Positions 17,654-53,694 of a DNA stretch of 64,000 nucleotides are shown here, piece by piece. This DNA comes from a virus, in IMG/VR virus record IMGVR_UViG_3300007609_001486, positions 18,511 to 82,510 of that record; one strand, written 5' to 3'. A program made the position numbers and the translations under genes. A model generated the notes under the pieces. That model did not search any database. It worked only from the letters and a program-made list of their open reading frames with translations, and was not told the origin of the DNA. Each line of letters starts with the position of its first letter. Positions within the stretch are counted from its first letter, which is position 1.

Positions 17654-17877
17654 AATTAGATAATCTTACACTGCGGGAACTGCAAAAAGAAAGTGCCAGG
17701 GCATTAAGCACGATGCAGGCGACAAATAATAACATTTATCAATTTAACAAAGAAGCCCATCATAATAGTCACAATTGGTACAAAGCAGTAATAAAATGGT
17801 ATGTAGCCCAATATGGAGATTTACCAAGCAATATTGGACCTGGTAAAGATATTCAATTAATAGCAGGTGAAAAATGA
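17650..17877 (+). CDS. Small hypothetical protein (75 aa)
   Basis: ATGA overlaps at both ends, with an AGGA SD. Confidence 0.7.
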   Translation: MKLDNLTLRELQKESARALSTMQATNNNIYQFNKEAHHNSHNWYKAVIKWYVAQYGDLPSNIGPGKDIQLIAGEK

Positions 17878-18599: not shown

Positions 18600-18607
18600 G
18601 TTCTATA

Positions 18608-19564
18608 ATGAAGAAATTAAAAGTAGAAAGAGCATCTATAGAAATTTTTGGTGGCTGTAACTATAAATGCGTAATGTGTCCCCAGTCGAAAGGAAGGGGC
18701 TCGTCGTGGACTCGGAAAATGCCATTACCACATTTTGTAAAATTGCTCGATCAATTAGACGGCAATCCTCTTATACAATTAGAAGGTTCGGGAGAAGCGT
18801 TTCTTGCAAAAGACTTAGATTTATATATTGCTGAATGTTCTAAAAGAAATATGAAAACATTCGTTAAAACAAATGGCTCTTTCAACACAACTCTTATGGA
18901 TAAATGTCTAAAAGCGGGGTTGACGTACATCAGATTTAGCGTAATAGGGCATGACAGACTTTCATATAAGAAAAATATGTCTGTTGATAACTTTGACTTG
19001 ATCATGGATAATATAACATATTGTATTGATCAAATAAGAAAAAAGCATTACAATTGCGAAATTAGCATATATCACATTTTATTGTCTTCTGATGACGAGG
19101 AACTCCAAAAATATAAAACAATAGCAAAAAAACTAAACTGTAAATCATATGTTTGGAAAATGCACAATTGGAGCGGTAACATTGATAGTAAAAATAGAAA
19201 AATTGTTAATAAGCGCAGAACTTGTGGCCGACCTTTTGCTAATGAAATTACAATTAGAGCAGGAGGAGAACCGGGCAGATATGGTGCGGTAACACCCTGC
19301 GCACAAACACTAGGACCGCCCAATGAGACAAAGAGTGTATTAGGATATTCTGACAAAGAAAGTTTACATGATATATGGAATGGAGCTTTATACAACGAAC
19401 TAAGAGAAAAACATCTCAAGGAAGACTTTGATAATATAGATTATTGTAAAAAATGTGACTTTTTATATGATGATCCTGACGTGTTAGTTTGGACAAATGA
19501 TGAGGCTACCGATGTAGGTGATATACAAGGGACTAGCCTAAATTTATTAAGGCATTTAAAATGA
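18608..19564 (+). CDS. Radical SAM protein with C-terminal SPASM/twitch domain
   Basis: CNYKCVMC, GSGE and TNG motifs. C-terminal CGRPF...PC...CKKC. Confidence 0.9.
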   Translation: MKKLKVERASIEIFGGCNYKCVMCPQSKGRGSSWTRKMPLPHFVKLLDQLDGNPLIQLEGSGEAFLAKDLDLYIAECSKRNMKTFVKTNGSFNTTLMDKCLKAGLTYIRFSVIGHDRLSYKKNMSVDNFDLIMDNITYCIDQIRKKHYNCEISIYHILLSSDDEELQKYKTIAKKLNCKSYVWKMHNWSGNIDSKNRKIVNKRRTCGRPFANEITIRAGGEPGRYGAVTPCAQTLGPPNETKSVLGYSDKESLHDIWNGALYNELREKHLKEDFDNIDYCKKCDFLYDDPDVLVWTNDEATDVGDIQGTSLNLLRHLK

Positions 19565-20511
19565 AACTTGACCGAGACATATCCGACTTACCTCGTTTAC
19601 CCAACGAAGCATACGAATGCTTCAAAAATTATTTCTTTTATTACTTACCAAAATACCCCACTAGAAATATCTTAAAACAAGCGTTATGGGATCCAAACAG
19701 AGTGCCCGAATATGCTGAGCCTCACCGTTATTTAAATTTGGATTATAAAATGATGAAATTTTATCATACAGTGCCGGCGATAAAAAGTTATGCAGAACAA
19801 TTGTGGTTTTTAGTTTCAAGCATAGATCAAAAAGGAATACAAAGTCCATTATGTTCGGAGAATCTTAAAACTTTCCATCCTGGGGGTAAAAGGTATGCAA
19901 TTGCAGGTTATTTAGATATTCCCACAATGCCTGTACTTTTACAATCAACCAAAAAAATTCAAGAATATAACAGTCGGCAATTGCATCATTTATTTGAAAT
20001 TACAAATTTATATAATAATCAGTGTAGTATGAAAGTTAGAAAAGACACTGGTGCCTTGGAAGTTTCTTGGCATGGCGAAACTTCAATGCGTGACAATAAT
20101 GGTTATGATGATTGGAGGAAAAAAGCAGACAATGTGCTATCAAATACGAATACGAATACAAATTTTAACATACCAAAGTTTTTGCTACAAAACGGACTAG
20201 ATGTTGTTAATAAATTTAGGGTAGGAACAAAAATTGACGGTATTTTTAAGACAAATTATTGTAGGAAATCTAATAGCCCTATCAAAATTATAATTGATGA
20301 TATCAAGTATATTGATTTAGATTTGTGGGAGCTATATTTTCATATAGATCCCACTGTGCATTTGAAGGTAGATAAATCAAGTTACATACAGATTGTAAAT
20401 GAAATTGCTTCTAAAGACATTGTTTATAATAACTGTAGATTATTAGAAACATTAACTAGAAAAAAAATTTTTACAGCAGAGACTGTGTTACTAAACAGAA
20501 AAGGCAGATAA
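19561..20511 (+). CDS. Hypothetical protein, possible ParB/sulfiredoxin-like N-terminal domain
   Basis: 316 aa. 'SIDQKGIQSPL...HPGGKRYAIA.YL....MPV' resembles the ParB-N G..R motif. Confidence 0.35.
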   Translation: MKLDRDISDLPRLPNEAYECFKNYFFYYLPKYPTRNILKQALWDPNRVPEYAEPHRYLNLDYKMMKFYHTVPAIKSYAEQLWFLVSSIDQKGIQSPLCSENLKTFHPGGKRYAIAGYLDIPTMPVLLQSTKKIQEYNSRQLHHLFEITNLYNNQCSMKVRKDTGALEVSWHGETSMRDNNGYDDWRKKADNVLSNTNTNTNFNIPKFLLQNGLDVVNKFRVGTKIDGIFKTNYCRKSNSPIKIIIDDIKYIDLDLWELYFHIDPTVHLKVDKSSYIQIVNEIASKDIVYNNCRLLETLTRKKIFTAETVLLNRKGR

Positions 20512-21593
20512 TGTATACATATGATGATATAAAAGAAGTTCATTTAGAAGTAACACAGCGGTGTCAAGCATCTTGTCCTATGTGTGACCGTAATATGAAC
20601 GGCGGTGCAGATAATCCACATATAACAAACGCAGAACTAACACTTGCAGATTGCAAACGTATATTCAAACCAGAATTTATCAAACAATTAAAAACGATGT
20701 ACATGTGCGGCAATTTAGGCGATCCTATTGTTGCTAGAGATACGCTGGATATTTTTAAATATTTCAGGCAGCATAATCCAAGCATGTGGCTCAGTATGAA
20801 TACAAATGCAGGAGCAAGGGACGAAGACTGGTGGACTGAACTAGCTGATACATTGGGAAGAATGGGTGCTGTCATTTTTAGTGTAGACGGACTGAAAGAC
20901 ACTAATCATATATATAGGCAAGGAGTGAATTGGGAAATCGTAGAAAGGTCAATGCAGTCATTTATAAGGGCAGGCGGCCGAGCTAGGTGGGATTTTTTAA
21001 TTTTTCAACACAATGAACATCAGGTCGAAGAAGCAGAACAACTTGCAAGATCCTGGGGAGTAGAAAGATTTATAAAAAAGAAATCAGGCAGATTTGTTAC
21101 ATCAGATATTAAACCAAAAGAACTGCATCAAGCAATTAACAGAAAAGGTGAACATACGGCCAAAATAGCAAAGCCAAGTAAAGAAGTTAATGTTAATCTT
21201 GCGTTACAAAAGCAAAAAGAAATTGAAAAAACATATGGTAGTATGAAAGAGTATCTTAACAAATGTTCAATTAATTGCAAGGTTGCAGAACAAGGTAGTA
21301 TATTCATAACGGCAGAAGGTTTACTGATGCCATGCTGTTGGACAGCAGGTCGTATGTACAAATGGTGGCACCAAGATCCTAGGGTAGAGCAAATTTGGGA
21401 TCACATAGAAATGGCCGGCGGCAAAGAGGGCATAAACGTAATAAATAACGATATACAAGATGTAATTAATGGTAACCTAATAAAAAGTATTAGTGATAGC
21501 TGGTCGCTCACTGGAGTGGAAAATGGAAAATTAGGAGTTTGCGCTCAGAAGTGCGGTTCCGATTTTGATCCATTTTCTGAACAGTTCAAATAA
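20511..21593 (+). CDS. Radical SAM protein (CGNxGDP subfamily, C-terminal twitch)
   Basis: CQASCPMC, CGNLGDP, 'IFITAEGLLMPCCW' and CAQKC. Confidence 0.9.
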   Translation: MYTYDDIKEVHLEVTQRCQASCPMCDRNMNGGADNPHITNAELTLADCKRIFKPEFIKQLKTMYMCGNLGDPIVARDTLDIFKYFRQHNPSMWLSMNTNAGARDEDWWTELADTLGRMGAVIFSVDGLKDTNHIYRQGVNWEIVERSMQSFIRAGGRARWDFLIFQHNEHQVEEAEQLARSWGVERFIKKKSGRFVTSDIKPKELHQAINRKGEHTAKIAKPSKEVNVNLALQKQKEIEKTYGSMKEYLNKCSINCKVAEQGSIFITAEGLLMPCCWTAGRMYKWWHQDPRVEQIWDHIEMAGGKEGINVINNDIQDVINGNLIKSISDSWSLTGVENGKLGVCAQKCGSDFDPFSEQFK

Positions 21594-22819
21594 AATTCTC
21601 TAAGTTCAGGAAACGTAGATGTAAAATCTGTGTTTCTCAGCGCATCAAATTTTTGTAGACTGCTAGCAAATCTAGTTTTTGCAACATGTAATTTATTATC
21701 AGCTTCTCTTGTGTTTAGAAATGATTTAAGATGTGCTATATTCCAAGAATTGTTTCCTTGTATAATATTATTCAAAATATCTAGTTGTTGATTGGCTTGT
21801 GCAAATAATTCTTCGTCTACCTGTAAAAACTTTGCAGTGTATGGTAAAGGATCGTACCAAGGATTTATTTTTCTATCTCTTCGGTCGACTTTAGTATTGT
21901 CGTCATACCATTGATATAGTTCTGCCAAGTGTAGTGCATTAAATACACTATAACAAGTTTGAATATTTACATTAACATTTGCATTTTGCAAATTATTCAA
22001 AGTTTCTAACCATTTCTGCTGTTTTAGTCCGTAACGAACATATTCACCTTGTTTGCCATGTCCGTCGTGGCTGATAGTTATAATGCACTTTTTACCCCAT
22101 CTTGCGAGGTAGTCGTCAATAATGTTTATGCTTTTGTATTTGCTTATACTGCCATTAGTGTGAGACCAGATTGTAATTTTTTTATGAAGATTGTGTTTTA
22201 TCATTATTTCTAAAAGCTCATGGACATCTTCTTGCATAAAAGGTTCGCCGCCGTTTAGATGTATTTTTTCTATACTGTCTTGATGCTTTAGAATATAGTC
22301 TATTTTATTATCATTATTATTTCTCCATAATTTTGAATTTAGACTATCGCTATTGCATCCGTGTGCTAAGGCAAAAGCCTCGTTATAATTTTGTGCAATA
22401 GTGCTAGATAGTTCTCCATTACAACCAAGGCATGCAAAGTTACATTTATTGGTCCATAAAAAATCTAACATCACTGGAAATTGTTGCTGCATATACCCGG
22501 TTGAATCGGTTGCAATTATTGCCTCTTTAATTTTCGATCTTCCAAATTTATTAGAGGCATCTCTTACATCTGCAATTGAGCCTGTTTCTTTTTCAAAATT
22601 AGAACATGTATCGCATTCTTTAGGGAAAGTATTGTTGAGGAAAGATTTTCTGATATTCTTAAATTTCTCATTGTTAACAATAGATTCTAGATCTGCTTGA
22701 TGTGTAGATCCTAATTCTGTATACATTGCACAACATGCAGTTACTTTACCAAACTGTCCTTCGTATAGAGAAGTAAATGGCGCAGCACAAAACTTGTCGC
22801 CCATTTTGTTAGATACCAT
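21545..22819 (-). CDS. N-terminal twitch-domain radical SAM protein
   Basis: N-terminal CAAPF...ACC...CDTC, then CNFACLGC, GGEPF and TNG. C-terminal D..R...F...FPEL. Confidence 0.9.
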   Translation of the reverse strand: MVSNKMGDKFCAAPFTSLYEGQFGKVTACCAMYTELGSTHQADLESIVNNEKFKNIRKSFLNNTFPKECDTCSNFEKETGSIADVRDASNKFGRSKIKEAIIATDSTGYMQQQFPVMLDFLWTNKCNFACLGCNGELSSTIAQNYNEAFALAHGCNSDSLNSKLWRNNNDNKIDYILKHQDSIEKIHLNGGEPFMQEDVHELLEIMIKHNLHKKITIWSHTNGSISKYKSINIIDDYLARWGKKCIITISHDGHGKQGEYVRYGLKQQKWLETLNNLQNANVNVNIQTCYSVFNALHLAELYQWYDDNTKVDRRDRKINPWYDPLPYTAKFLQVDEELFAQANQQLDILNNIIQGNNSWNIAHLKSFLNTREADNKLHVAKTRFASSLQKFDALRNTDFTSTFPELREFYLNCSENGSKSEPHF

Positions 22820-22840
22820 AAAAATAATTTCCTTAAATAC

Positions 22841-22869
22841 TTGACCTAAATATTTATAAAGTGTATTAT
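22841..22869 (+). promoter_or_regulatory. Sigma70-type promoter TTGACC-N17-TATTAT
   Basis: 5/6 and 5/6 hexamer matches with 17 nt spacer, just upstream of ATG 22876. Confidence 0.55.
22851..22858 (-). promoter_or_regulatory. T4-late-type promoter TATAAATA
   Basis: Perfect consensus on the - strand, 31 nt upstream of the 22819 start, with an AAGGA SD. Confidence 0.65.
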
Positions 22870-22875
22870 AGTGTA

Positions 22876-23502
22876 ATGTTTGAATTAGAGTCTCTTAATA
22901 AAATTGAATTAGAAATTACTAGTAATTGTAATGCTGCTTGTCCGGGTTGTGCAAGAACGCTTAATCCTGATAAATTTTCAATCAATACGATAACTTTTGC
23001 CGATATAAAACAAATGTTCCCTTCACGTAGCACAATCGAAGGTAAAAAATTTAAATTCTGCGGAGTTTTAGGAGATCCTGCTTTTAATAAAGAATGTGTA
23101 GATATGGTAGATTACCTAGTTTCGTATGACGGGTTTTGTGAAATTAGCACAAACGGAGGAATACAGTCGGCCGACTGGTGGTCTAAATTAGGCAAAATAG
23201 CCTCAAGTAGTCCTAACTTACTCCATATACATTTTTGCGTCGACGGTTACAAAGAAACTAATCATATATATCGTGTTAACACAATATATGATGTTATTGA
23301 TAGAAATATGCAAGCATTTTGTGATTCAGCTCCTCCTAATCACGCTAGTTGGATTTATATAGTATTCGATCATAATGAACACGAATTACTATTAGCTGAA
23401 CAACGTGCAAAAGAATTAAATTTTATGTTTGCAACTAGAACCGGTATGCGTAATAGTTACAACGAATGGATTGCTCAAATTAAGAAGAAAAAAAATGTCT
23501 AA
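22876..23502 (+). CDS. Radical SAM protein (CGxxGDP subfamily), N-terminal part of a split/frameshifted gene
   Basis: CNAACPGC, CGVLGDP and TNGG. Ends right after an A8 run. ATG 22876 preferred over GTG 22861. Confidence 0.8.
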   Translation: MFELESLNKIELEITSNCNAACPGCARTLNPDKFSINTITFADIKQMFPSRSTIEGKKFKFCGVLGDPAFNKECVDMVDYLVSYDGFCEISTNGGIQSADWWSKLGKIASSSPNLLHIHFCVDGYKETNHIYRVNTIYDVIDRNMQAFCDSAPPNHASWIYIVFDHNEHELLLAEQRAKELNFMFATRTGMRNSYNEWIAQIKKKKNV

Positions 23503-23953
23503 CAAAATAATAATAACAACAACAGGTTCTAAAGAACACAGTAAAAAAGATATAGTACAAGAACTAGATAATTTTATTAAAGAATATGAAGATCATAACC
23601 TTGATGAGGAAAAACTCAAAGAAGTTCTTAATAGTATTGTATGCAAATATGTGCACGAAGGAGAAATTTTTATTGCTAGCGATAAAACAGTTTGGCCGTG
23701 CTGCTTTCTCTGGGATAGTTATTTTAGAAACAAAGACAATATAAAAGAAACATTTTCTGACTTTAGAGAAAACTGGAATAGTTTACAGGAAAATAACATT
23801 GATGATATTTTGTCTCATCCTTGGTTTAAAACCATACTAGGAGAAAGTTGGGACCCTCGACACCCCAAGCATATTAGTCGTTGTATTAGAACGTGTGCTA
23901 AGAATAAAGCATACCACAATGAAATAAATTACAAAGATACCACGAACAAATAA
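23495..23953 (+). CDS. C-terminal twitch-domain part of the split radical SAM gene
   Basis: 'IVC...EIFIASDKTVWPCCFL...CIRTC' matches the C-termini of paralogues 20511 and 31611. +1 frame relative to the upstream ORF. Confidence 0.75.
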   Translation: MSNKIIITTTGSKEHSKKDIVQELDNFIKEYEDHNLDEEKLKEVLNSIVCKYVHEGEIFIASDKTVWPCCFLWDSYFRNKDNIKETFSDFRENWNSLQENNIDDILSHPWFKTILGESWDPRHPKHISRCIRTCAKNKAYHNEINYKDTTNK

Positions 23954-23969
23954 CATACTGATGTATAAA

Positions 23970-23977
23970 GGTAAGTA
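23970..23977 (+). promoter_or_regulatory. Late-like promoter variant GGTAAGTA, 5 nt before ATG
   Basis: TAAGTA core with the same spacing as other enzyme starts. Confidence 0.35.
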
Positions 23978-23982
23978 AATTT

Positions 23983-25395
23983 ATGAAAAATAAAATATCC
24001 GATACCTGGTGCATTCTGCCCTGGGTACATTTAAGCACTCGGCCTGATGGAAGTATGAGGGTATGTTGTACAGCAAATGCAAGTTCGGTAGGTCCTACTA
24101 ACGATAAAGAACACGGCGGACAAGTTGGTATACTAAAAACTGAAGACGGAAAACCTAACAATCTAAATGTAAGCGACTTTGAAACAGCATGGAATAGCAC
24201 ATACATGCGCAATGTGCGCAAACAAATGCTTAATGGCGAAATACCTCCGAGTTGTGTGAAATGTTTTAAAGAAGAAGCAGCCGGTCATAACAGTAAAAGA
24301 ATGTGGGAAACACACTACTGGAGCCAACGAGTTGATGTAGATAAGTTAATTCAAAATACTGCCGAGGACGGTAGTGTTCCTCCTCAGTTGGCATATATTG
24401 ATTTGCGATTTGGTACTAAGTGTCAATTAGCGTGTGTAATGTGTTCTCCCCATGACAGTTCGGGCTGGATTAAAGACTATAAAGCAATTTTTCCAGCAGT
24501 AGAAAATGCATCACTAAAAGAAACTATGCAGTGGCAGGACAAAGGAAGTTATAACGGAAGTAGTTATAATTGGCATAAACAGAATCCTGTATTCTGGGAG
24601 CAGTTCTATGAGCAAATGCCAAATATGCAGCAAATTTATTTTGCAGGCGGCGAAAGTCTTATTATCGAAGAGCATTACGAAATATTAGAGCATGCAATAA
24701 AAATGGGATATGCGAAAGATCTTGAATTGCGTTATAATTCGAATGGTGTCGAATGGCGAGAAGATTTATTTGATTTGTGGAAAGAGTTTAAATTAGTTCG
24801 ATTCCATTATAGTGTTGATAGTATACACAAAATGAATGACTATATTCGTTATCCAAGCAAATGGGACAGAACACGAGAAGTGTTCCATATTTTAGATAAA
24901 GAAACATCAAATAATGTCGAAGTTACTGTTGCTTGTGCAGTACAAGCATTAAACATTTATTATATTCCTGATTTCATTCGTTGGAAACTAGAAGAAGGAT
25001 TTAATAAAATTAACATGTGGCCATTTGGAGCGGGCGGTGTTAACTATCATTTTGTATATCATCCTCCGCACTTAAATGTTAAAGTATTACCCAAATGGTT
25101 TAAAGAAGAAGTACGCAGAAAATATGAAGAATTTTATCCATGGTGGGAAGAAAATTGGGAATTAGGTGTCCCTAATTGGCATCGAGGCAAAGTTACAAAG
25201 GAACAGTTTATGGAAGCAGGATATGGGATTAAACGCTTGAAAGGAATGCTACAGTTTATGGAAAGTGAAGACTGGAGTATACGTTTACCTGAAATGAAAG
25301 AATTTTTAGATTTATGCGATAAACAGCGCGGAATAACATTTGCAGAAACATTTCCAGAGATGAAAAATATTTTTAGTGAGGACCCTAATGTTTGA
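23983..25395 (+). CDS. N-terminal twitch-domain radical SAM protein
   Basis: CILPWVH...DG..RVCC...CVKC, then CQLACVMC and FAGGE. Confidence 0.9.
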   Translation: MKNKISDTWCILPWVHLSTRPDGSMRVCCTANASSVGPTNDKEHGGQVGILKTEDGKPNNLNVSDFETAWNSTYMRNVRKQMLNGEIPPSCVKCFKEEAAGHNSKRMWETHYWSQRVDVDKLIQNTAEDGSVPPQLAYIDLRFGTKCQLACVMCSPHDSSGWIKDYKAIFPAVENASLKETMQWQDKGSYNGSSYNWHKQNPVFWEQFYEQMPNMQQIYFAGGESLIIEEHYEILEHAIKMGYAKDLELRYNSNGVEWREDLFDLWKEFKLVRFHYSVDSIHKMNDYIRYPSKWDRTREVFHILDKETSNNVEVTVACAVQALNIYYIPDFIRWKLEEGFNKINMWPFGAGGVNYHFVYHPPHLNVKVLPKWFKEEVRRKYEEFYPWWEENWELGVPNWHRGKVTKEQFMEAGYGIKRLKGMLQFMESEDWSIRLPEMKEFLDLCDKQRGITFAETFPEMKNIFSEDPNV

Positions 25396-26215
25396 AGATA
25401 ATAATCTACTTTACAAAGACTTACATGAAAACTTAATCAAAGAAACAATTAGTGGTTTAGATATCTATCTAGATCCAAACTGGAAAAAAATTGCAGTAAA
25501 TCTCAGTGGCGGTGCAGACAGTGCATTACTAACCTATATAGTTTGCAGTATCATTAAAAAATACAAACTCAACATTCGAGTAAATGTTATTACATACCAA
25601 AGATGCTGGACAACTAGACCTTGGCAAGGATGGTGGAGTATACAGGTTTATAACAAGCTAAAAAGTTATTTTCCAAATATTATTGCAGATAGAATTACAA
25701 ATTATATTCCTCCTGAATTAGAATATGGAGTTTCTGGACCTATTATAGACGGTAGAAGTGGAGATCAAATTATTGTTGGAAGTTTCAATAAATTTGCTGC
25801 ATGGGAATATAATCTAGATGCAATTTTTAATGCTACAAGTAAGAACCCTGATAACGATACTAGAAGTGATAGAATGAATAATAGAGACGGTGATGCTGCT
25901 AGTGGAAATGTAAAAGATGTGTGGTCTCATAACGATACATTAAATGTTGTATTGGCGCATCCGTTTAAATATGTACAAAAGGATTGGATAGTAACACAAT
26001 ATCATGTGTTAGATATTATAGAATTGTACGATACAACAAGAAGTTGCGAGGGAGACATTAATCTTCATTCAGAAATTAAAAGAGCAGTACCCTCGGCGAC
26101 TGATTATGTAGAAGGCATGAAGATTCCAACTTGTGGAGAATGTTGGTGGTGTTACGAACGAGAATGGGCAGAGAGTAGAGTACAAACAATGATGGAAGCT
26201 CTTAACAATGTCTGA
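25388..26215 (+). CDS. QueC-like PP-loop ATP pyrophosphatase (adenine nucleotide alpha-hydrolase family)
   Basis: SGGADS PP-loop. C-terminal TRSC...CGECWWC..R Zn-type motif as in QueC. Confidence 0.7.
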   Translation: MFEDNNLLYKDLHENLIKETISGLDIYLDPNWKKIAVNLSGGADSALLTYIVCSIIKKYKLNIRVNVITYQRCWTTRPWQGWWSIQVYNKLKSYFPNIIADRITNYIPPELEYGVSGPIIDGRSGDQIIVGSFNKFAAWEYNLDAIFNATSKNPDNDTRSDRMNNRDGDAASGNVKDVWSHNDTLNVVLAHPFKYVQKDWIVTQYHVLDIIELYDTTRSCEGDINLHSEIKRAVPSATDYVEGMKIPTCGECWWCYEREWAESRVQTMMEALNNV

Positions 26216-27527: not shown

Positions 27528-28728
27528 TACAATTGATTTACTTACAGGGGGAGTATTTCAGGTAACTTGGGATACAGGTCGTAGATGTAATTACGATTGT
27601 TCATACTGCCCCGCAATACGGCACGATAATTTTTCTCCGCATGCAACATTAGAAGAATTAAAAAATAACACAGACTTCCTATTTGAATATATTGACTTGC
27701 ATATGCAGTATAGAAAATATAAGTCTGCTAATATAGGGTTTACTGGAGGAGAGCCCACCGTTAATCCTAATTTTATTCCATTTGCCAAATACCTTAAAAC
27801 AGAATACGAAAACAAATACAGAGATAAATGGAACTGCGGATTTGCGCTTACGACAAATGGTGCAATGGGTAAAAAAATGGCCAATGCGGTCATGGAAAAC
27901 TTTGGCTTTGCAACAGTTAGTTATCATGCTGAGAGTGATAACAAATTAAAACAGCAGGTTAGAGACAGAATTATGCAATTCCATACCGAAGGACCTGACC
28001 ACAATTTTGGTGTTAGTGTTAATGTAATGTTTCATGCAGCCTACTTTGACGAATGTAAAGACCTATGTGATTTCCTACATGATAATGGTGTTAAATATGT
28101 GCCTCGTGTAATAGGAGAAGAACCAGGAAGTCGAAGTAATTTTGCTCACACCTATTCAGACGATCAACTTGATTACATGAAAAATTATTGGCAATACAAA
28201 AATGCTGAATTAAATGGAGAGAAAGAAGTTTCAGACCGTCTTAGGGCCACAGGCGAACCGACTCCAGAAGAAATAAAAGCCAAAGAATTAGAAATAATAA
28301 AGAAAAAAGAATCCGAAAAGAAAGGTTATAAAATAGGAAGGCCGTGTTGCGGAAGCAGAGAAATGTGTCTAAGTAACGCGGGCGAAAGCAGAAAGAGTAC
28401 TTTCGTTGACTTTAGAGAGTTTAAAGGTTGGCATTGCAGTGTAAATTGGTTCTTCCTGCATCTAGAGCAACAAACAGATAGTGTATTCCATCATCAAACC
28501 TGTCAAGCAAGGTTTGATAAAACTAGAGGGCCTATAGGAAAAATTAGTGAAGGAAAAAAACTTATAGCCCAATTAAAACAACAAATGGAAAGCGGAACTT
28601 TACCTACTGTGATATGTCCTAAACATACATGCGGATGCGGATTATGTGCACCTAAAAGCCAGTATGAAGAGAATTACTACGATGTTATTAAAGGTCATAT
28701 AGATACAAATATTATTGGAAAAGCATAA
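27517..28728 (+). CDS. Radical SAM protein (FKGWxC subfamily) with Cys-rich C-terminus
   Basis: CNYDCSYC, TGGEPT, RPCC, FKGWHC and CPKHTCGCGLC. Confidence 0.9.
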   Translation: MSFDTIDLLTGGVFQVTWDTGRRCNYDCSYCPAIRHDNFSPHATLEELKNNTDFLFEYIDLHMQYRKYKSANIGFTGGEPTVNPNFIPFAKYLKTEYENKYRDKWNCGFALTTNGAMGKKMANAVMENFGFATVSYHAESDNKLKQQVRDRIMQFHTEGPDHNFGVSVNVMFHAAYFDECKDLCDFLHDNGVKYVPRVIGEEPGSRSNFAHTYSDDQLDYMKNYWQYKNAELNGEKEVSDRLRATGEPTPEEIKAKELEIIKKKESEKKGYKIGRPCCGSREMCLSNAGESRKSTFVDFREFKGWHCSVNWFFLHLEQQTDSVFHHQTCQARFDKTRGPIGKISEGKKLIAQLKQQMESGTLPTVICPKHTCGCGLCAPKSQYEENYYDVIKGHIDTNIIGKA

Positions 28729-28732
28729 AGTT

Positions 28733-29959
28733 ATGTCAAGAAATACATATTGTAAATATCCCTTTAAACAACTGGCAATGAAAAATTTTGAAAATAATAA
28801 AGCAAGGTCGTTTTGGCCTTGTTGTAACATGCCAAACACTCAAGAAGGAGTTTATGATCCTGATGTTTTAGGTACCGGAGAAATAAGCAATTTGACTCCG
28901 GAAGAAATGTTTAATCATCCTAGAATGGACCAATTGCGCAATAATCTTATTGCAGGAATAAGAGATCCTGCATGTAGTGTATGCTGGAAAATGGAAGATA
29001 AAGGACTTAAATCATATAGAAATAATTCTTTTGACGAAAACACCGCTCTAGATTATGAAAAAAATCTAGAAATAATTGATGTGACTATTTCAAATATTTG
29101 TAACCTTAGGTGTAGAATGTGCACCCCTGGTAACAGTAATCTGTTAATGAAAGACCACAAATACTTCGAAGAAAACAATTTATTATCAGAATTAGGCGAT
29201 GCAATTAAAGACAGATGGAGCGCAAGTGTACCGCATGCTACACACCAGTCTCCTCAGTGGAAATGGCTTTTAGAAAATCCTAGTAAAATTAAAATGCTTA
29301 AAATGTCAGGAGGAGAACCATTTTATGATAAAGAAGTGATCAAACTTTTGCAAAGCTATATTGACAATGACACTGCAAAGGATATAGTCTTAGCCTTTCA
29401 CACAAACGGAACACAATTTGACGATAATCTGATAAGCATGCTTCAACAATTTAAAGGAAATAAACATACACTCAGCATAGACGGCGTCAACAAGGTTTAT
29501 GACTATATCAGATATCCAGGAACATTTAAAGAAATAGAAAATCAGTTACCAAAATATATCAGTGAAGTTGTTGACGTAGAAGATTGGGTTGATTTTAATT
29601 TTGTTTTGACCTCTCTAAATGTGCTTAATGCTGGCGATTACATAAAATGGTGTTTATCCCTTGTGCAAAAGCCTGCTCTTGTTTTTACAGAAGTATATCC
29701 TACCGAGCGTGGCATTGCAATTAAAAGACTGCCTTGCTATATATTAGAGGAAGCAAAACGCAGAATTATACCTTATATGGATGTTCCTTATGTAGATTAC
29801 GCAGTGAGCGAACTTATAAATCAAATTAATTGGGCAATAAAGAATAATAACGAAGATAAGAGTTTATTGCTAAAGGAAATTACATTGTTTGATAGATCGA
29901 GGAATCAATATTTTGGAGATTATATAGATCCATTGCTTACAGATTGGTTAGAATCATGA
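28733..29959 (+). CDS. N-terminal twitch-domain radical SAM protein
   Basis: CKYPF...PCC...CSVC, then CNLRCRMC and SGGEPF. Start may be TTG 28715. Confidence 0.9.
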   Translation: MSRNTYCKYPFKQLAMKNFENNKARSFWPCCNMPNTQEGVYDPDVLGTGEISNLTPEEMFNHPRMDQLRNNLIAGIRDPACSVCWKMEDKGLKSYRNNSFDENTALDYEKNLEIIDVTISNICNLRCRMCTPGNSNLLMKDHKYFEENNLLSELGDAIKDRWSASVPHATHQSPQWKWLLENPSKIKMLKMSGGEPFYDKEVIKLLQSYIDNDTAKDIVLAFHTNGTQFDDNLISMLQQFKGNKHTLSIDGVNKVYDYIRYPGTFKEIENQLPKYISEVVDVEDWVDFNFVLTSLNVLNAGDYIKWCLSLVQKPALVFTEVYPTERGIAIKRLPCYILEEAKRRIIPYMDVPYVDYAVSELINQINWAIKNNNEDKSLLLKEITLFDRSRNQYFGDYIDPLLTDWLES

Positions 29960-30510
29960 TAATAACCGGAAATCCAAATCAAGGACTAGCCCGAGCACTA
30001 TCTAAAATTTTTCCGACTGCAGAATTTTTCAGTAAGTCGACCGGATGGGATTTATGCAAAACAGAACACCAGCAACAATTTGCAAAACTCTGTCTATCCC
30101 ATGACACAATTATAAACTGTGTAGCACTATGGCGGTTTGAACAAACCACCCTCTTAGACGCAATATATAGGTCGTGTGTGGACGCAAATCATACTCCGCA
30201 TATAGTATGCATAGGAAGCACAACTGACAGAGTAAAAAACGGAAAGCCTTGGCTATATAATGCAGAGAAAAAAGCACTCAGGGATTACAGTAACACTTTA
30301 GCTATAGGCGGAGTGTGGTCTGACAAACCAAAAGTAAGTTATATTAGTTTTGGCACACTTTCAAACAAGCAAGAAAAACATACTGATAGAAAGTGTCTTG
30401 ATATAGACACAGCTGCTCAGTACGTTCAGTGGTTGATAGAACAACCTAAACATGTTAATATAAATGAGATAAGTATAGATCCTATGCAATGCGAGAAATG
30501 GTATGAATGA
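29956..30510 (+). CDS. Short-chain dehydrogenase/reductase
   Basis: 'IITGNPNQGLA' Rossmann motif and YNAEK (YxxxK). ATGA overlap with the upstream stop. Confidence 0.7.
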   Translation: MIITGNPNQGLARALSKIFPTAEFFSKSTGWDLCKTEHQQQFAKLCLSHDTIINCVALWRFEQTTLLDAIYRSCVDANHTPHIVCIGSTTDRVKNGKPWLYNAEKKALRDYSNTLAIGGVWSDKPKVSYISFGTLSNKQEKHTDRKCLDIDTAAQYVQWLIEQPKHVNINEISIDPMQCEKWYE

Positions 30511-31618
30511 AGATCTCAAATGGAGTAATTACGATTTTACGAAAATTCCCTTTCATGATATTACGCAAGTAGGCCAGCGCACACTTTTATACAGAGATAT
30601 CTTCACAGTGTCGTGGCTCCTTGGAAGATTCTGTAATTATAGATGTAGCTATTGCTGGCCATACGCCAGATCTGACAAAAAAGATCATCGACCGACAGAA
30701 CTTTGTCTTAAAACAATAGATGAAATAAAGCGCCAAGCACGGGATAACGGATTTAACAGTTTTCATTTTAGTCTCAGCGGTGGAGAACCAACTTTTCATC
30801 CAGGATATTTAGATATTTTAAAATACCTTGCAGACGATGTACAGAATACTAATTATACCAGTATTCATATGACTAGTAATTGTAGTCGAAATATGAAATG
30901 GTTTGAAGAATATGTGGAAAGCGCAAAACCCTTCCACCGTGCAAGTATAACTGCAAGCTTACACACAGAGCATGTAAACACTCCGGAAAAAATGCAGGAA
31001 TTTGCGGACAAATTAATCTTTTGCCAAGAACATGATGTTCAAGTGACCATTAACCAAGTAATGGTCCCAGACTGGTTTGAACGAGATTGGGAAAATGCTC
31101 TTTTCTTTCATGAGCAGGGCATAAATGTAACGTTAAAACCTCAGAGCGACCCCACGGCCAGCAGGGTTGTTGATGGGTATACCGAAGACATGTTAAAACG
31201 ATTATATAACGGAATGCCTCAGAGAGCATATACAGAATTAAAAAGAAAATGGGCAGGTAGACCCAAGCCCAACTTTCAAATTCCAGTTGGAGTAAACGGA
31301 AAAAATGATGCTAGTGTGCCGTGGCATATGCAAGTTGAGTTTAAAGATTCCACCGGCAAAAAATGGTACATGGATCAAGCAGAAAGGTTTAATGCATTCA
31401 ACTTTAACAAATTTAAAGGTTGGAACTGCAATGCAGGCTTCCAAGGTATTATAATTAGAGAGCCCGACGGAAGCGTTAAACGGTCTTATAGTTGCCATGA
31501 TGTTCCTTTAGGAAATATAGAAACAGGATTTAATTTATTTGACCAACCGATGCCTTGCATAACTGAAAGTTGTGTAAGTTCTGCAGATAGCAAGATTCCA
31601 AAAAGAAAAGATGTATAA
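30503..31618 (+). CDS. Radical SAM protein (FKGWxC subfamily)
   Basis: CNYRCSYC, SGGEPT, FKGWNCNAG and CITESCVS. Confidence 0.9.
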   Translation: MNEDLKWSNYDFTKIPFHDITQVGQRTLLYRDIFTVSWLLGRFCNYRCSYCWPYARSDKKDHRPTELCLKTIDEIKRQARDNGFNSFHFSLSGGEPTFHPGYLDILKYLADDVQNTNYTSIHMTSNCSRNMKWFEEYVESAKPFHRASITASLHTEHVNTPEKMQEFADKLIFCQEHDVQVTINQVMVPDWFERDWENALFFHEQGINVTLKPQSDPTASRVVDGYTEDMLKRLYNGMPQRAYTELKRKWAGRPKPNFQIPVGVNGKNDASVPWHMQVEFKDSTGKKWYMDQAERFNAFNFNKFKGWNCNAGFQGIIIREPDGSVKRSYSCHDVPLGNIETGFNLFDQPMPCITESCVSSADSKIPKRKDV

Positions 31619-32663
31619 TGTAAACGATGTTCGGGAATTACATATTGAGCTGACAGATAAATGCCAGGCGCAATGTCCTATGTGTGCTAGGAATTATAAC
31701 GGATATGGCACTAGAACTTTTATTGAAAATAGAGAAATATCATTCAACGAGTTTAAAGAATGGTTCCCTGAAGAATTCCTAGCACGATTAGATAATTTTT
31801 ACAGTTGTGGTAACTATGGTGATCCTGCATTTGCTAGTGACTGTCTAGAAATATTTGCATATGCTCGCAAATGTAATCCTACCGCCAAAATGTCATTACA
31901 TACTAATGGCGGCATGCGCAATCCGAAATGGTGGTCCGAACTTGCAAAACATAATATTGAGGTTGTATTTGCGGTAGACGGATTCAAGGGTAAACATGAA
32001 CTTTATCGTAAAAATACAAAATTTGAAAAGGTAATTGAAAACTTAAAAGCATTTATCGATGCAGGCGGAAGTGCCTGTGTTGATAGTTTAGTATTTGCAC
32101 ATAACGAATTTGAAACAGAATTATTAGAAGATTATTTGTTAAAATTAGGTGTCAAATACGTAAACTTTGTTAGCACTACTAGGTTTTACGAAATGAAAGA
32201 ATTCTATGTTTATAACGAAGATAAAAATTTTCAATATTCGTTAAAGCCACCAACATTACCTCCTTATAAACGGGAACCTAATAATACATTAGAGTCTTTA
32301 TTAAACCATAACGTAAGAAAACAAGTAGTACACGATGCTGTAATTTCTCCAAAATGTACTAGTGTAAAAGGAATCTACGTTGATCCAAGGGGAAACTTAT
32401 ATCCCTGCTGTCTAATAGGACACGATTATATTGAGGATGACGTAAAGGAAATTCTGCCAGTACACACCTTACATAATATTTCAATAAAACACACTAAGAA
32501 TATTCTTGGTAAAGTAGGATTACAAAACTGTAAAGATAGAATATTATATACAAATGAAGTTTTATTTAAAGATTTTGATAAAACATGGAGTAATGAAGAC
32601 AAATGTTTAACATGTGTAAATGCTTGCTCTAAAACAGTATACGAGTATACAAAAAATGTCTAA
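31611..32663 (+). CDS. Radical SAM protein (CGNxGDP subfamily, C-terminal twitch)
   Basis: CQAQCPMC, CGNYGDP, GNLYPCC and CLTCVNAC. Confidence 0.9.
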   Translation: MYNVNDVRELHIELTDKCQAQCPMCARNYNGYGTRTFIENREISFNEFKEWFPEEFLARLDNFYSCGNYGDPAFASDCLEIFAYARKCNPTAKMSLHTNGGMRNPKWWSELAKHNIEVVFAVDGFKGKHELYRKNTKFEKVIENLKAFIDAGGSACVDSLVFAHNEFETELLEDYLLKLGVKYVNFVSTTRFYEMKEFYVYNEDKNFQYSLKPPTLPPYKREPNNTLESLLNHNVRKQVVHDAVISPKCTSVKGIYVDPRGNLYPCCLIGHDYIEDDVKEILPVHTLHNISIKHTKNILGKVGLQNCKDRILYTNEVLFKDFDKTWSNEDKCLTCVNACSKTVYEYTKNV

Positions 32664-33975
32664 GATAGATAAATTGAAAAAAGAAATAGAGGAAAAAACA
32701 GGATCTACTACATTCTGTGCGTTACCTTGGACGCATGTTGCGACAGAAACAAACGGCTCTATGCGGTTGTGCTGTGCATCTAATACTAAAGGCATTGTAT
32801 CTAATCCTAAAAATACCGGCACTCAGGCAACTTTAGACAATACTACAATCACTAAAGAATGGAATAACGAATATTACAAGAATATTCGTAACAAAATGTT
32901 ATCAAATGAAGAGCCCTTAGATTGTCAAAAGTGTTTCCAACAAGAAAAATTAGGGATTATCTCTAAACGACTTTGGGAAACCAGAGAATGGCTTAATAGA
33001 CGTTTGGATACATCTTTCCTATCTGAGATTGCAGAGCCACCAGTATACTTAGATTTACGTTTAGGCAATAGCTGTAATTTAAAATGCGTAATGTGCTCTC
33101 CGCATGACAGTTCACAGTGGGTAAAGGATTATAAAAATTTAAACGCAGAAACCAAAGCACTGGTAGATTGGGATCAAGAAACAAAAAATCCTTTTTGGCA
33201 TAGAAATAAACCTTTTATACACGATCTTTATAAATTAATACCTACCTTGGAACAAGTTCAGTTTGCAGGCGGAGAGCCTTTAATGATCCCTGAACATTTT
33301 AATTTATTAAACGAAATTATAAATGAAGGACGAAGTCACCATGTAGTTTTGAAATATAATACCAATGGTACAATTGTTAATGATGAGATCTTAGACATAT
33401 GGAAAAATTTTAAAAAAGTCAAAGTTTCTATAAGTTTAGACGGAATAGAGGGCAGAGGTGAATATATCAGACACCCGATGGCTTGGGAGCAAATTAAAGA
33501 AAATCTACAAATCCTTGATAAATCACCGGAAAACATTGATGTAAATTTAGCTGTCACAGTTCAATTATTAAACATAAAACATTTGCCTGATTTTGCGAAA
33601 TGGAAAATTGCACAAAAATTTAAAAAAATTAATTTAGAAATTATAGAAGGATATCAAATAGGCGCAGGTATTTTTAACATGCATCTCCTTTATATTCCTA
33701 CCTTTTTAAGTATTCAGTGTTTACCAGAACAAGATAAAAAAGAAGTGGAAGAAAGTTTTTTACAATTTAAAAAGTGGCTTAAAGACAATTATAACCAATC
33801 ATTTTGGCATAATCCTGTTGGCTGGCAAAAATGGCAATCATTGTTAGATTACATGTATAAACACGATGGATCCGACCAAATTCCTAATTTTCAAAAATAT
33901 ATTTTAAATTTAGATTCTATAAGAGGAACTGATGCAAAAGAAATATTTCCTGAACTATCACATCTTTTTCTTTGA
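32656..33975 (+). CDS. N-terminal twitch-domain radical SAM protein
   Basis: CALPWTH...RLCC...CQKC, then CNLKCVMCSPHDSS and FAGGEP. Closest in-window paralogue of 23983. Confidence 0.9.
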   Translation: MSKIDKLKKEIEEKTGSTTFCALPWTHVATETNGSMRLCCASNTKGIVSNPKNTGTQATLDNTTITKEWNNEYYKNIRNKMLSNEEPLDCQKCFQQEKLGIISKRLWETREWLNRRLDTSFLSEIAEPPVYLDLRLGNSCNLKCVMCSPHDSSQWVKDYKNLNAETKALVDWDQETKNPFWHRNKPFIHDLYKLIPTLEQVQFAGGEPLMIPEHFNLLNEIINEGRSHHVVLKYNTNGTIVNDEILDIWKNFKKVKVSISLDGIEGRGEYIRHPMAWEQIKENLQILDKSPENIDVNLAVTVQLLNIKHLPDFAKWKIAQKFKKINLEIIEGYQIGAGIFNMHLLYIPTFLSIQCLPEQDKKEVEESFLQFKKWLKDNYNQSFWHNPVGWQKWQSLLDYMYKHDGSDQIPNFQKYILNLDSIRGTDAKEIFPELSHLFL

Positions 33976-34851
33976 TATAGGAATATCGCCTGCACAAGTG
34001 CACCAATTTCGTGTGCAAATTACAGGTTCTTCAGGAACTTCAAAACTACCTTCATAGATATTACCTAAACTCCCCCCAACTCTGCATGTAGCACGATGCA
34101 CTTCTCCGTCCCAGTTTATCATTAAACTTTCTAATCCCACATTGCAACTCCATCCCTTGAATTTATTGAGGTGATTCTTTATAATTTCGTTTGCGTGCAT
34201 GGTTGATGTATCATCTATAACACAATTTGGCCTTGCAGTTCCAGTGTTTTGTAGAATCCAGTCTAAATCTTCTGTAGCATACTTTAAATCGTCAAACCAG
34301 TCATGATCGCCATTAGTCCATCTTATGCGTCTTATTACTGTAGGAATATTCATTGATTGCAACATTTCCCATGCTCTTTTTACCATATCCATATATTCGT
34401 GGTGTGCCATTAAATGTACTATTACGTCTCTATCAAATACTTTACCTACATTAATTGCATTGTTTAAACTTTTAGACCATAACTCGTTGTCAAAGTGTAG
34501 ACTGAATACGTATTGATTCACAGGCTGATCAAGGTACCATTGCACATTACGTAACCCGTTTGAAGTTACATTTATCCATTTAACATGCATTGATTCATCT
34601 ATATGATTTATAAGTTCTTCAATTTTAGGGTGAACAGTTGGCTCGCCCCCGGTCAGACTCATTCTTACAGGTTTTGCAAGTTCTTCTAATTTATCTACAG
34701 CATCTAACATATGCTTAATTTCGGCATGGGGACTAAAATTATCATGTATACTCGGAGGACAATAGGCACAATCTAAATTGCATCTTTTACCTATATTCCA
34801 TTCTACTTTAACAGTGTCAGTATTGTCGTAAACATTTTCGACTTTAAACAT
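33958..34851 (-). CDS. Radical SAM protein (FKGWxC subfamily)
   Basis: CNLDCAYC, TGGEPT, FKGWSCNVG and CTRNWCTC. Confidence 0.9.
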   Translation of the reverse strand: MFKVENVYDNTDTVKVEWNIGKRCNLDCAYCPPSIHDNFSPHAEIKHMLDAVDKLEELAKPVRMSLTGGEPTVHPKIEELINHIDESMHVKWINVTSNGLRNVQWYLDQPVNQYVFSLHFDNELWSKSLNNAINVGKVFDRDVIVHLMAHHEYMDMVKRAWEMLQSMNIPTVIRRIRWTNGDHDWFDDLKYATEDLDWILQNTGTARPNCVIDDTSTMHANEIIKNHLNKFKGWSCNVGLESLMINWDGEVHRATCRVGGSLGNIYEGSFEVPEEPVICTRNWCTCAGDIPISKKKM

Positions 34852-36109
34852 ATTTCTTAAACTCTGGATTGATATGTTCGAAAGGTCCCTGCGATCTAGT
34901 TTTATCTAATGCGCGATTAAACTCAATAGTTTCCCGCCATAAATGATGTTGATCAGTGGCTTTTATATATGTTATTACGTCGTTAATTTGGTTAATTGTA
35001 AATTCCAATAACTTACCATTATCTTTGACAAGTTTAAAATTTGGAACTTTTTCTTTAACCTGTTCTAGTCTTTTCACTACTTCTTGTTTTAGATCTTTTG
35101 GTAATACTTGAGCAGAAAGAACCCTAGGATGGTCGACACTTTTAGCATAAAATATTATGCCCAAATCATCTAAGAAATATTCTATCATTTTATCTAAGAC
35201 CATAATGTTATTTACTTGGAATGCAACTGCTCCTACAATACGATTAATATTGGGAATATCTTGCATTACTTTTATATTTTTTATTAGGGTTTCCCAATCA
35301 CCATTTCCTCTTACATATTCATAACTTTTACCTATTCCATCTATGCTAACATTTACAGCGACACTTTTAAATCTAGGCCAGTAATCGTGTATATTCCTGC
35401 CACCTTTTATACCTAAAATCGTCCCATTAGTTGCATATTTAATTTCGATATTTTCTCCGTATGTGGAAAGCATATCTAAGATCTTATAATGGTGCGGGTC
35501 CATGAGAGGCTCGCCTCCGGCAAATTCAACCCTTCGGAAATATGGCAACAACTTTTCAAAACTGTTCCACCAGTTTGTGTTATCTTCAAAATGACCTAAA
35601 TAAGGATTCTTTTTGAGGTTTAAATTATCTACCATGTTAGGTAAGAAAACATCGTCGTCCTTATAGTAACCTTCGATAGAATCCCAATCTTTCCACGAAG
35701 TGCTGTCAACAGGATTGCACATTCTGCACTTTAAATTACATAGATTGTTAATTTTAATTTCAATGGTAGGGATTTCAAAAGGCATTGAGTAATCTTCATT
35801 AAGGTTGTCTAAAGCATTAGGATAAAGATTTATTCTTGACTCTGGAATAACATTCTCTATATGTCGTTGTCGTAAACTTTGTACTCCTTGATCCTCCAAC
35901 ATATAACAGGGTAAACATTCAGGCGGCCTCTCATCATTTAACACCTGCTGTCTGATACGTAGCATATTTTCGTTATTCCAAATTTCTTCTAAACTTTCAT
36001 CTTGAATGTAGCCAACAGGGTGACTGCGGCAGCATATTTTTACTGCGCCGTCCTCTCGGGTAGCAAGTCCAGTAAAAGGGTGCATACAAAATGTACAGGA
36101 TTTTTTCAT
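34844..36109 (-). CDS. N-terminal twitch-domain radical SAM protein
   Basis: CMHPF...DG.VKICC...CLPC, then CNLKCRMC and FAGGEP. Confidence 0.9.
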   Translation of the reverse strand: MKKSCTFCMHPFTGLATREDGAVKICCRSHPVGYIQDESLEEIWNNENMLRIRQQVLNDERPPECLPCYMLEDQGVQSLRQRHIENVIPESRINLYPNALDNLNEDYSMPFEIPTIEIKINNLCNLKCRMCNPVDSTSWKDWDSIEGYYKDDDVFLPNMVDNLNLKKNPYLGHFEDNTNWWNSFEKLLPYFRRVEFAGGEPLMDPHHYKILDMLSTYGENIEIKYATNGTILGIKGGRNIHDYWPRFKSVAVNVSIDGIGKSYEYVRGNGDWETLIKNIKVMQDIPNINRIVGAVAFQVNNIMVLDKMIEYFLDDLGIIFYAKSVDHPRVLSAQVLPKDLKQEVVKRLEQVKEKVPNFKLVKDNGKLLEFTINQINDVITYIKATDQHHLWRETIEFNRALDKTRSQGPFEHINPEFKKYV

Positions 36110-36114
36110 AATGT

Positions 36115-36143
36115 TACTTATCTCATATGGCTAATTATAAATA
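36115..36143. promoter_or_regulatory. Back-to-back late-type promoters: GATAAGTA (- strand, 36115-36122) and TATAAATA (+ strand, 36136-36143)
   Basis: Each motif lies exactly 5 nt before an ATG (36109 on -, 36149 on +). Confidence 0.6.
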
Positions 36144-53684: not shown

Positions 53685-53690
53685 TAAATA
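53683..53690 (+). promoter_or_regulatory. Late-like motif ATTAAATA, 4 nt before ATG 53695
   Basis: TAAATA core, no SD. Confidence 0.4.
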
Positions 53691-53694
53691 ACAT

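Follow-up and report, generated by a model that had tools for sequence, protein, structure and literature searches.

The 64,000-nucleotide stretch of viral DNA analysed here (positions 18,511 to 82,510 of the IMG/VR virus record IMGVR_UViG_3300007609_001486; hereafter, the window) carries thirteen radical S-adenosylmethionine (SAM) genes between positions 18608 and 36109, which the comparisons described below show to be old paralogues of three subfamilies (A, B and C) and a singleton, each maintained by purifying selection. Moreover, related phages share a backbone, formed by a putative dual GT-A glycosyltransferase, a gene named OG2 and three radical SAM genes (B1, A2 and C2), and the radical SAM cassettes located between these anchors are interchangeable, being rapidly gained, lost and swapped. 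Radical SAM enzymes perform some of biology's hardest reactions and, to our knowledge, most of their subfamilies lack a known function.

The array holds 17 open reading frames (ORFs), nearly without gaps and most of them sharing a few bases with the adjoining one. Thirteen radical SAM genes, mostly co-directional on the plus strand and one of them (B2) in two pieces, are interleaved with three other ORFs at 19561-20511, 25376-26215 and 29944-30510. All thirteen genes match the Pfam family Radical_SAM (PF04055; E ≤ 1.1e-4) and each one contains a single CxxxCxxC, the SAM-binding [4Fe-4S] motif. Eleven of them exceed the PF04055 gathering score (29.5 bits), the two below it being the N-terminal piece of B2 (22.9 bits) and A1 (26.8 bits), which nevertheless passes the NCBIfam model NF033640. 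Both the number of genes and the conservation of the motif had been proposed in a previous reading of the DNA from its letters alone (the sequence-only reading), whose division into three paralogue subfamilies plus a singleton was likewise returned by an all-against-all BLASTP of the array proteins (E ≤ 1e-3), with no cross-group match and no match whatsoever for the singleton. Subfamily A comprises six genes with 21-36% mutual identity: A1 (21545-22819, minus strand; NF033640 237.5 bits), A2 (23983-25395; 417.1 bits), A3 (26208-27527; 373.7 bits), A4 (28715-29959, with a likelier ATG start at 28733; 238.3 bits), A5 (32620-33975, with an alternative start at 32656; 378.9 bits) and A6 (34844-36109, minus strand; 331.2 bits). 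The three B genes show 33-35% mutual identity and correspond to B1 (20511-21593; Pfam 33.1 bits), B2 (22861-23953, with pieces at 22861-23502 and 23429-23953) and B3 (31611-32663; Pfam 45.9 bits), whereas the three C genes, C1 (27517-28728; Pfam 40.4 bits), C2 (30503-31618; Pfam 51.6 bits) and C3 (33958-34851, minus strand, downstream partner of A6; Pfam 44.8 bits), are 22-24% identical to each other. Three further radical SAM genes that the sequence-only reading did not mention, located at 51530-56947, raise the total of the window to 16.

A twitch domain at the N-terminus had been proposed for the A proteins, and all six pass end to end the model NF033640 (N_Twi_rSAM, twitch domain-containing radical SAM protein; cut-off 170 bits) with 237-417 bits; B, C and the singleton reach at most 45 bits. 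The Pfam SPASM model matches the N-terminal 61-85 residues of A1, A2, A5 and A6, and an alignment of 68 members of the A family (18% mean column identity) keeps C10, C91, C94, C147, C151, C154 and the GGE motif invariant. As C10, C28/29, C91 and C94 are conserved ahead of the core C147, the auxiliary twitch domain is placed at the N-terminus. An N-terminal Cys-rich domain followed by CxxxCxxC and GGE is thus common to the A proteins and the catalogued NF033640 family; what distinguishes the window is that a single operon contains six strongly diverged copies together with two sister subfamilies. The B-family alignment keeps C18, C22, C25, C275 and C344, and that of the C family C44, C48, C51, GGE and four C-terminal Cys. 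The SPASM subfamily has two auxiliary clusters and a seven-Cys motif; B and C, with 4-5 conserved Cys at their C-termini, would fit better with one auxiliary cluster than with the two of SPASM.

Profile comparisons connected the three subfamilies through their cores, both for A and B (hhalign, 99.4%, E 3e-21) and for B and C (98.3%, E 1.8e-14). Moreover, residues 8-98 of A aligned by hhalign with the C-terminal domain of B (96.3%, E 2e-9), including the C...CC...C pattern, and the tail of the C family did not align (21%). The core alignment, together with that of the A N-terminus to the B C-terminus, therefore shows that A and B are made of the same two modules in reversed order, A being a B enzyme with the same auxiliary Fe-S (twitch) domain ahead of the core instead of behind it, and C has a different four-Cys C-terminal domain. 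Altogether, A, B and C are ancient relatives sharing one radical SAM core. The butirosin 2-deoxy-scyllo-inosamine dehydrogenase BtrN is the founding twitch-domain enzyme, and its twitch domain (residues 164-241) is matched by the A N-terminal domain (profile positions 4-79, E 1.1e-7). The likeness comprises the matching twitch, one auxiliary cluster held through few Cys and a similar aminosugar- or cyclitol-type enzyme context, but this domain stands at the C-terminus of BtrN and at the N-terminus of the A proteins, and the A cores are no nearer to BtrN than to many other radical SAM enzymes. The best core matches of the array enzymes by profile and fold are CteB, SkfB, SuiB, anSME and 8vpo, the latter from a paper on radical SAM cyclopropyl synthases. 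With an AlphaFold2 (AF2) model of A2 (pLDDT 89.4, pTM 0.90), the best Foldseek matches were CteB, SkfB and SuiB, through the generic radical SAM core only, and the TM of just 0.30-0.35 to maturases of this type is explained by their different domain order. A search of the Protein Atlas with A2 returned unnamed viral clusters only.

An accordion-like expansion had been suggested as the origin of the array, an idea that did not hold. In a tree of the A family (quick IQ-TREE search with 68 sequences, the six of the window plus one member per orthogroup from relatives), the six window copies needed 6 label changes, for a mean of 5.9 with shuffled labels and with 500 of 500 shuffles as low. Five of them (A1, A2, A3, A4 and A6) have the gene of a different phage as their partner in the tree, and A5 falls near A2 (support 85). 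Copies that are so diverged and no more clustered than shuffled labels indicate that there was no recent amplification within this genome; instead, relatives differ by the gain, loss and replacement of cassettes. Regarding selection, ratios of nonsynonymous to synonymous substitution (dN/dS; Nei-Gojobori throughout) between window genes and their orthologues were obtained for the five radical SAM genes with usable pairs (A2 0.043, C1 0.093, B1 0.125, A3 0.167 and A1 0.25; C2 had no usable pair), values that are rough because dS was saturated near 2. Close pairs, with 80-97% protein identity, were usable for 25 of 28 orthogroups; here the median dN/dS was 0.079 for A (14 orthogroups), 0.084 for B (6) and 0.061 for C (5), with 0.075 for the C2 orthogroup, a maximum of 0.37 and none above 0.5. 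Pseudogene-like ratios, which the sequence-only reading had named as an outcome that would refute it, are therefore absent from these 25 orthogroups (medians 0.06-0.08). Given their intact catalytic motifs and the purifying selection, the array enzymes are most likely functional radical SAM proteins of the twitch/SPASM type.

The split gene B2 is frameshifted in this phage. At the break, where eight A follow one another (~23484-23491), the frame shifts by +1. A second assembly of the single public run containing this exact stretch (DNA, labelled soil metagenome; no RNA run with the stretch is listed) showed no difference over 23266-24000 at a depth of ~7.5, a check that is not fully independent because the window may have been derived from this very run. 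In addition, the B2 orthologue is a single ORF of 339-374 aa in 43/43 relatives. Transcriptional slippage on the A8 run could conceivably rescue the gene.

Close relatives of A2 were found in 262 viral contigs, of which the best 80 (by construction, 84-90% identical to A2) were studied and dereplicated to 52 sequences. A2 is the most conserved gene of the array, and the other core genes are also widespread, since B1 has an orthologue with at least 45% identity in 74 of the 80 loci and C2, the right-hand anchor of the array, is at least 80% identical in 29 of them. In the dereplicated set, B1 is present in 48 loci, the B2 group in 26, A3 and C1 in 25 each, and C2 in 22, many loci ending before C2. 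Profile searches of the same 52 loci detected OG3, the putative glycosyltransferase, in 45 and OG2 in 47, with OG2 preceding B1 in 25. Around this backbone the turnover is high. Clustering at 45% identity of the radical SAM proteins of 81 sequences gave 142 orthogroups (92 A, 32 B, 17 C and 1 singleton), and the radical SAM orthogroup content of two loci, compared by the Jaccard index, decays from a median of 1.00 at A2 identities of at least 99% to 0.50 at 94-97% and 0.27 at 90-94%. The number of radical SAM ORFs per locus goes from 6 to 13 (median 9) in the 31 dereplicated loci of at least 20 kb, and the 13 genes found here in 17.5 kb exceed the maximum of 12 among the relatives' loci of that size. 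The totals across loci (A 379, B 190, C 100) hide ratios that vary widely from one locus to another.

Other members of the array have a more restricted distribution. A1 has orthologues with 45-56% identity in 8 of the 80 loci, the nearest relatives of A4 are 40-44% identical, and the singleton has no orthologue among the 80. A second lineage of 11 contigs (L092-L102) contains orthologues of A6 (61-65% identity) and C3 (45-57%) in all 11 cases, the two genes lying side by side in 3 contigs and with a single gene in between in the other 8, always with a PP-loop gene nearby. A 64% orthologue of B3 occurs in L093, and A5, for which no close relative was found in the viral-contig search, has 45-47% orthologues in 5 loci (L093-L096 and L100). 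Ten other contigs (L104-L113) have a pair of A genes only. In public data, including Tara Oceans, A2 orthologues are abundant: of 4495 candidates, 2800 proteins reach E ≤ 1e-10.

As for the order of the genes, the sequence-only reading held that B genes are followed by A genes, and this is the case for 3/3 in the window, though with less weight than it was given (P 0.036 with B2 counted once, 0.27 with its pieces apart). The neighbourhood of each C gene with an A or a B gene is also seen, but a permutation reproduces it readily (P 0.50). A within-locus permutation over 48 related loci with 678 genes, which ignores shared ancestry, did reveal a non-random order of the subfamilies, as had been anticipated: B then A was observed 53 times for 41.0 expected (P 0.010) and A then C 33 times for 24.0 expected (P 0.012), whereas the reverse orders were scarcer (C then A, 9 for 24.0 expected, with 0/2000 shuffles as low; A then B, 29 for 40.9 expected). 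Part of this bias reflects the inherited layout of the backbone, B1...A2...C2.

Upstream of the array, the backbone gene OG3 (15184-16827, plus strand) codes for a putative two-domain glycosyltransferase of the GT-A type, an assignment based on its model and on Foldseek, without a Pfam match. The AF2 model (pLDDT 73.4, pTM 0.46) folds as two GT-A domains and has its best Foldseek match in the chondroitin polymerase K4CP (E 5.3e-6), followed by SunS, RmlT, PBCV-1 A64R and WrtF at probabilities of 0.99-1.0 (TM 0.14-0.23). By fold it is best matched by polysaccharide polymerases of the bifunctional type and by other GT-A transferases, and the Protein Atlas gave a GT2 lead only. The following backbone gene, OG2 (16799-17653, plus strand), known from profile matches in relatives, is usually located directly upstream of B1; it has no family assignment, with neither Pfam nor PDB sequence matches. 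In this genome, however, the singleton radical SAM gene (18608-19564, plus strand) and two neighbours form an insertion (17874-20511) between OG2 and B1. The singleton (Pfam Radical_SAM 45.2 bits), with its CxxxCxxC in the form CNYKCVMC at residue 17, is the only array gene with a C-terminus of the SPASM subfamily (PF13186, 35.6 bits, residues 225-284), and the ORF next to it (19561-20511) gave no family. Inside the array, a PP-loop ATPase-like gene (25376-26215, plus strand) shows an SGGADS motif, a C-terminal Cys cluster and a weak match to the TilS N-terminus (E 9e-4); a paralogue in a relative matches the Pfam PP-loop family (E 8e-4), and the PP-loop profiles OG7 and OG13 are each found in 34 of the 52 dereplicated loci and in 11/11 loci of the second lineage. 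Finally, a small conserved gene (29944-30510, plus strand), weakly SDR-like through NCBIfam matches at E 1e-4 only, belongs to an orthogroup present in 21 of the 52 loci with a dN/dS of 0.123.

The array lies within a low-GC island (~12.5-57 kb; GC 0.315-0.384, compared to 0.395-0.419 at 1-12 kb and 0.410-0.465 at 58-64 kb). Tail-fibre and baseplate-type genes are found to its left, and to its right a fibre gene at 56897-58135 (minus strand), whose Mtd_N domain, the N-terminus of a major tropism determinant, marks the right edge of the island. Among the island genes there is an amidinotransferase (41536-42609), with HsvA (8.5e-23) and StrB1 (6.8e-18) as the closest solved proteins, which converges on a class III aminotransferase gene (41536-43812 for both), and there are two genes of the Asp/Asn hydroxylase type (Asp_Arg_Hydrox). 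Two flavin-dependent Trp-halogenase genes (44455-45939, minus, and 47286-48833, plus; Pfam E ~1e-88) flank genes for a 2-oxoglutarate oxygenase and a methyltransferase. The three additional radical SAM genes, all on the plus strand, encode a TrsS/Tes-like protein with an N-terminal Zn ribbon (51530-52666; Pfam Radical_SAM 76.3 bits) and two PhpK-like, B12-binding proteins of 540 aa each, in tandem (53695-55314, 66.2 bits; 55307-56947, 52.1 bits), and the best NCBIfam matches of all three remain below their cut-offs. A gene for S-adenosylmethionine decarboxylase (52663-53097, minus strand; Pfam E 7e-16) stands among these SAM-consuming enzymes. The T4 late-promoter box TATAAATA is not enriched in the window (7 for 9.9 expected); two of the seven TATAAATA boxes (22851-22858, minus, and 36136-36143, plus) occur in divergent gaps by minus-strand radical SAM genes, and one of these two lies 32 bases upstream of the A1 start.

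With all these data, our tentative preference, slightly short of an even chance, is that the array enzymes are independent tailoring enzymes for a glycan or aminosugar made by the phage. Each enzyme would act alone, cleaving SAM to the 5'-deoxyadenosyl radical, and would introduce a single change into a glycan, be it oxidation, epimerisation, dehydration, decarboxylation or C-C/C-methyl formation, at one of its sugar, aminosugar or cyclitol units. Assembly of the glycan would fall to the conserved glycosyltransferase, and other island enzymes (aminotransferase, amidinotransferase, PP-loop enzyme, methyltransferases, oxygenases and halogenases) would add further decorations. In this way, the cassettes present would determine a product specific to each strain, located on the virion or at the surface of the infected cell. 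In this regard, the amidinotransferase, the aminotransferase, the B12-type radical SAM proteins and the BtrN-like twitch recall, by analogy, the pathways of aminosugars and aminocyclitols. Iterative steps on related substrates, also raised by the sequence-only reading, may be involved as well and fit the data. A more ambitious version, in which a fixed scaffold (the dual glycosyltransferase, B1, A2 and C2) and well over 100 interchangeable cassettes, exchanged between phages, would rewrite sugars by undescribed carbohydrate radical chemistry, giving each strain its own virion or host-surface glycan for host recognition or the exclusion of rival phages, is doubtful.

Several observations weigh against tailoring of a glycan. 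No characterised member of NF033640, B or C was found in the literature on N-terminal twitch/SPASM enzymes and phage radical SAM clusters. The fold of A2 does not single out a substrate class, as its Z scores (VIA) are tied at 10.5-12.1 (anSME 12.1, BlsE 11.8, CteB 11.6, viperin 11.6, DesII 11.3, with MoaA also among the ties), and the best solved relatives by profile are peptide maturases (8vpo 2.7e-17, SkfB 1.7e-14, CteB 4e-13), which precede viperin, GDGT-MAS and BlsE, the latter with a match of only 6e-9. The call of the glycosyltransferase depends on a middling model with low TM values and no Pfam match, no gene for a glycan, an acceptor or sugar-nucleotide synthesis was identified, and the Asp/Asn beta-hydroxylase-type genes of the island are protein modifiers by family name. 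Moreover, the bacterial gene context, scanned with a single protein, was uninformative, with one 2.8-kb contig from a metagenome-assembled genome and one weak match.

The main rival is the modification of proteins or peptides, by which the enzymes would introduce crosslinks, epimerisations or methylations in tail fibres, other structural proteins or an unrecognised precursor, with the hydroxylases and halogenases acting on the same substrate. The closest solved profile relatives just mentioned are maturases of ribosomally synthesised and post-translationally modified peptides, the top Foldseek matches CteB, SkfB and SuiB point in the same direction, and the two Asp_Arg_Hydrox genes, the two Trp halogenases and the location of the island between tail-fibre genes would also make sense. 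Unlike the SPASM/twitch peptide maturases, however, the array came without a detectable RRE, precursor peptide or Cys-rich target. The PqqD/RRE Pfam domain was found in 0/13 array genes and in none of the neighbouring genes scanned (E ≤ 0.01), bearing in mind that some maturases have no detectable RRE; the only small ORF in the two island gaps of at least 60 bp (17650-17877, 75 aa) has neither Cys nor repeats; and no CX3CX3C was seen in the 64 window ORFs examined, the fibre proteins having 0-4 Cys without Cys repeats. As, in addition, the conserved neighbour is a putative dual glycosyltransferase, we regard this explanation as rather unlikely. A free small molecule made during infection (aminoglycoside-like, guanidino or halogenated) and directed to the host or to competitors seems less probable still. 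It would account for an amidinotransferase closest to HsvA and StrB1, for the class III aminotransferase, the halogenases, the B12-type radical SAM proteins and the BtrN-like twitch, and for the pairing of five radical SAM genes with an amidinotransferase in the Campylobacter phages CP220 and CPt10 (PMC2853527), but most of this evidence is shared with glycan tailoring. Moreover, the fibre-gene setting and the fast cassette turnover suit a product linked to recognition better, and no export or resistance gene was identified. Altogether, it is the sugar context combined with the lack of signs of a peptide substrate that leads us to favour glycan or aminosugar tailoring over both protein modification and a free small molecule.

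Two other explanations depart further from tailoring of a glycan. That A, B and C work as obligate heteromers, as the sequence-only reading suggested, would be in line with the polar gene order over the 48 loci, with the A6-C3 neighbourhood kept in 11/11 loci of the second lineage and with a conserved core formed by one gene per subfamily. Nevertheless, no subfamily lacks a complete radical SAM core or an auxiliary-cluster domain of its own, copy ratios vary widely, other phages have A-only pairs and inheritance of the backbone can account for the order, so that we find obligate heteromers improbable; a complex prediction for A6 and C3 with custom alignments gave a score of 0.00, which speaks neither for nor against their association. 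Modification of DNA or nucleotides, whether of the 7-deazaguanine type, as another hypermodified base or through viperin-like nucleotide chemistry, is unlikely, to the point that we give it hardly any credence. The PP-loop gene recurs inside the arrays, 3/5 records of relatives have a sub-threshold match to the QueC C-terminus, and there are weak matches to viperin and QueE models. On the contrary, TGT/DpdA was found in 0/5 records and QueC stays below the cut-off in 5/5 (at most 15.4 bits for 22), two absences that are not proven because the five records are only 23-72% complete, and the scores with the viperin model (NF038283) reach at most 43.7 bits, for C2, with a cut-off of 180.

Regarding the phage itself, completeness is rated at 23% for the source record, an IMG/VR fragment of 82.5 kb. 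A Gp23 capsid gene of the T4 type is present in its long relatives, and one of them, with 256.6 kb rated 72% complete, leads to a genome estimate of ~350 kb. The nearest cultured capsid proteins are those of Sinorhizobium phage Phosso (75%), Vibrio phage 2.275.O (72%) and PA5oct (70%), and the AAA ATPase encoded at 61134-62219 (minus strand) of the window is 50% identical to its counterpart in Pseudomonas phage PA5oct. The two matches therefore place this DNA with the PA5oct-like giant phages and not with cyanophages or pelagimyophages, and its owner is, judging from these genes, an uncultured giant phage of the T4 superfamily. Neither the array nor the first 12 kb had a megablast match among 50,697 phage records.

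T4-like phages rich in radical SAM genes were already in print in 2010, 2017 and 2020. Timms et al. (2010) described 11 and 12 radical SAM proteins in the Campylobacter phages CP220 and CPt10, with an interchangeable module of five radical SAM genes and an amidinotransferase (PMC2853527), a pairing that is common to the window. Nishimura et al. (2017) reported 12 radical SAM genes in a marine environmental genome of the T4-like kind (PMC5332604), and Zaragoza-Solas et al. (2020) found radical SAM cassettes in the host recognition cluster of pelagimyophages, likewise a hypervariable island with tail-fibre genes (PMC7029224). The parts of these three papers that deal with such genes give counts and positions, without a dissection into families or a function, and the array is a large addition to a known but unstudied kind. 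The lineage differs from the published radical-SAM-rich T4-like phages, since its capsid is nearer to PA5oct, Phosso and Vibrio 2.275.O (70-75%). Among deposited phage genomes, A2 matched 3 records with 22% identity, B1 matched 4 records over at most 53% of the query and C2 matched 17 over at most 48%; in the published cultured phages rich in radical SAM genes, B1 and C2 were matched weakly (24-33% identity over at most 53% of the query) and A2 was unmatched.

What emerges is a widespread lineage of uncultured giant phages that keeps a very large pool of radical SAM genes under purifying selection (142 orthogroups in 81 sequences), with up to 16 of these genes per genome at its most variable spot, between tail-fibre genes. 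If the tailoring of a glycan were true, the pool would point to new carbohydrate radical chemistry and a new route for phages to vary their own surface or that of the host. Experiments could start from the conserved core of B1, A2 and C2, or from a small cluster of unnamed genes that includes A-family members in the cultured Vibrio phage K566 (L114, OZ196521). In this phage, with a genome of 255 kb and a possible laboratory model, four A-family genes are clustered at 161548-168284.

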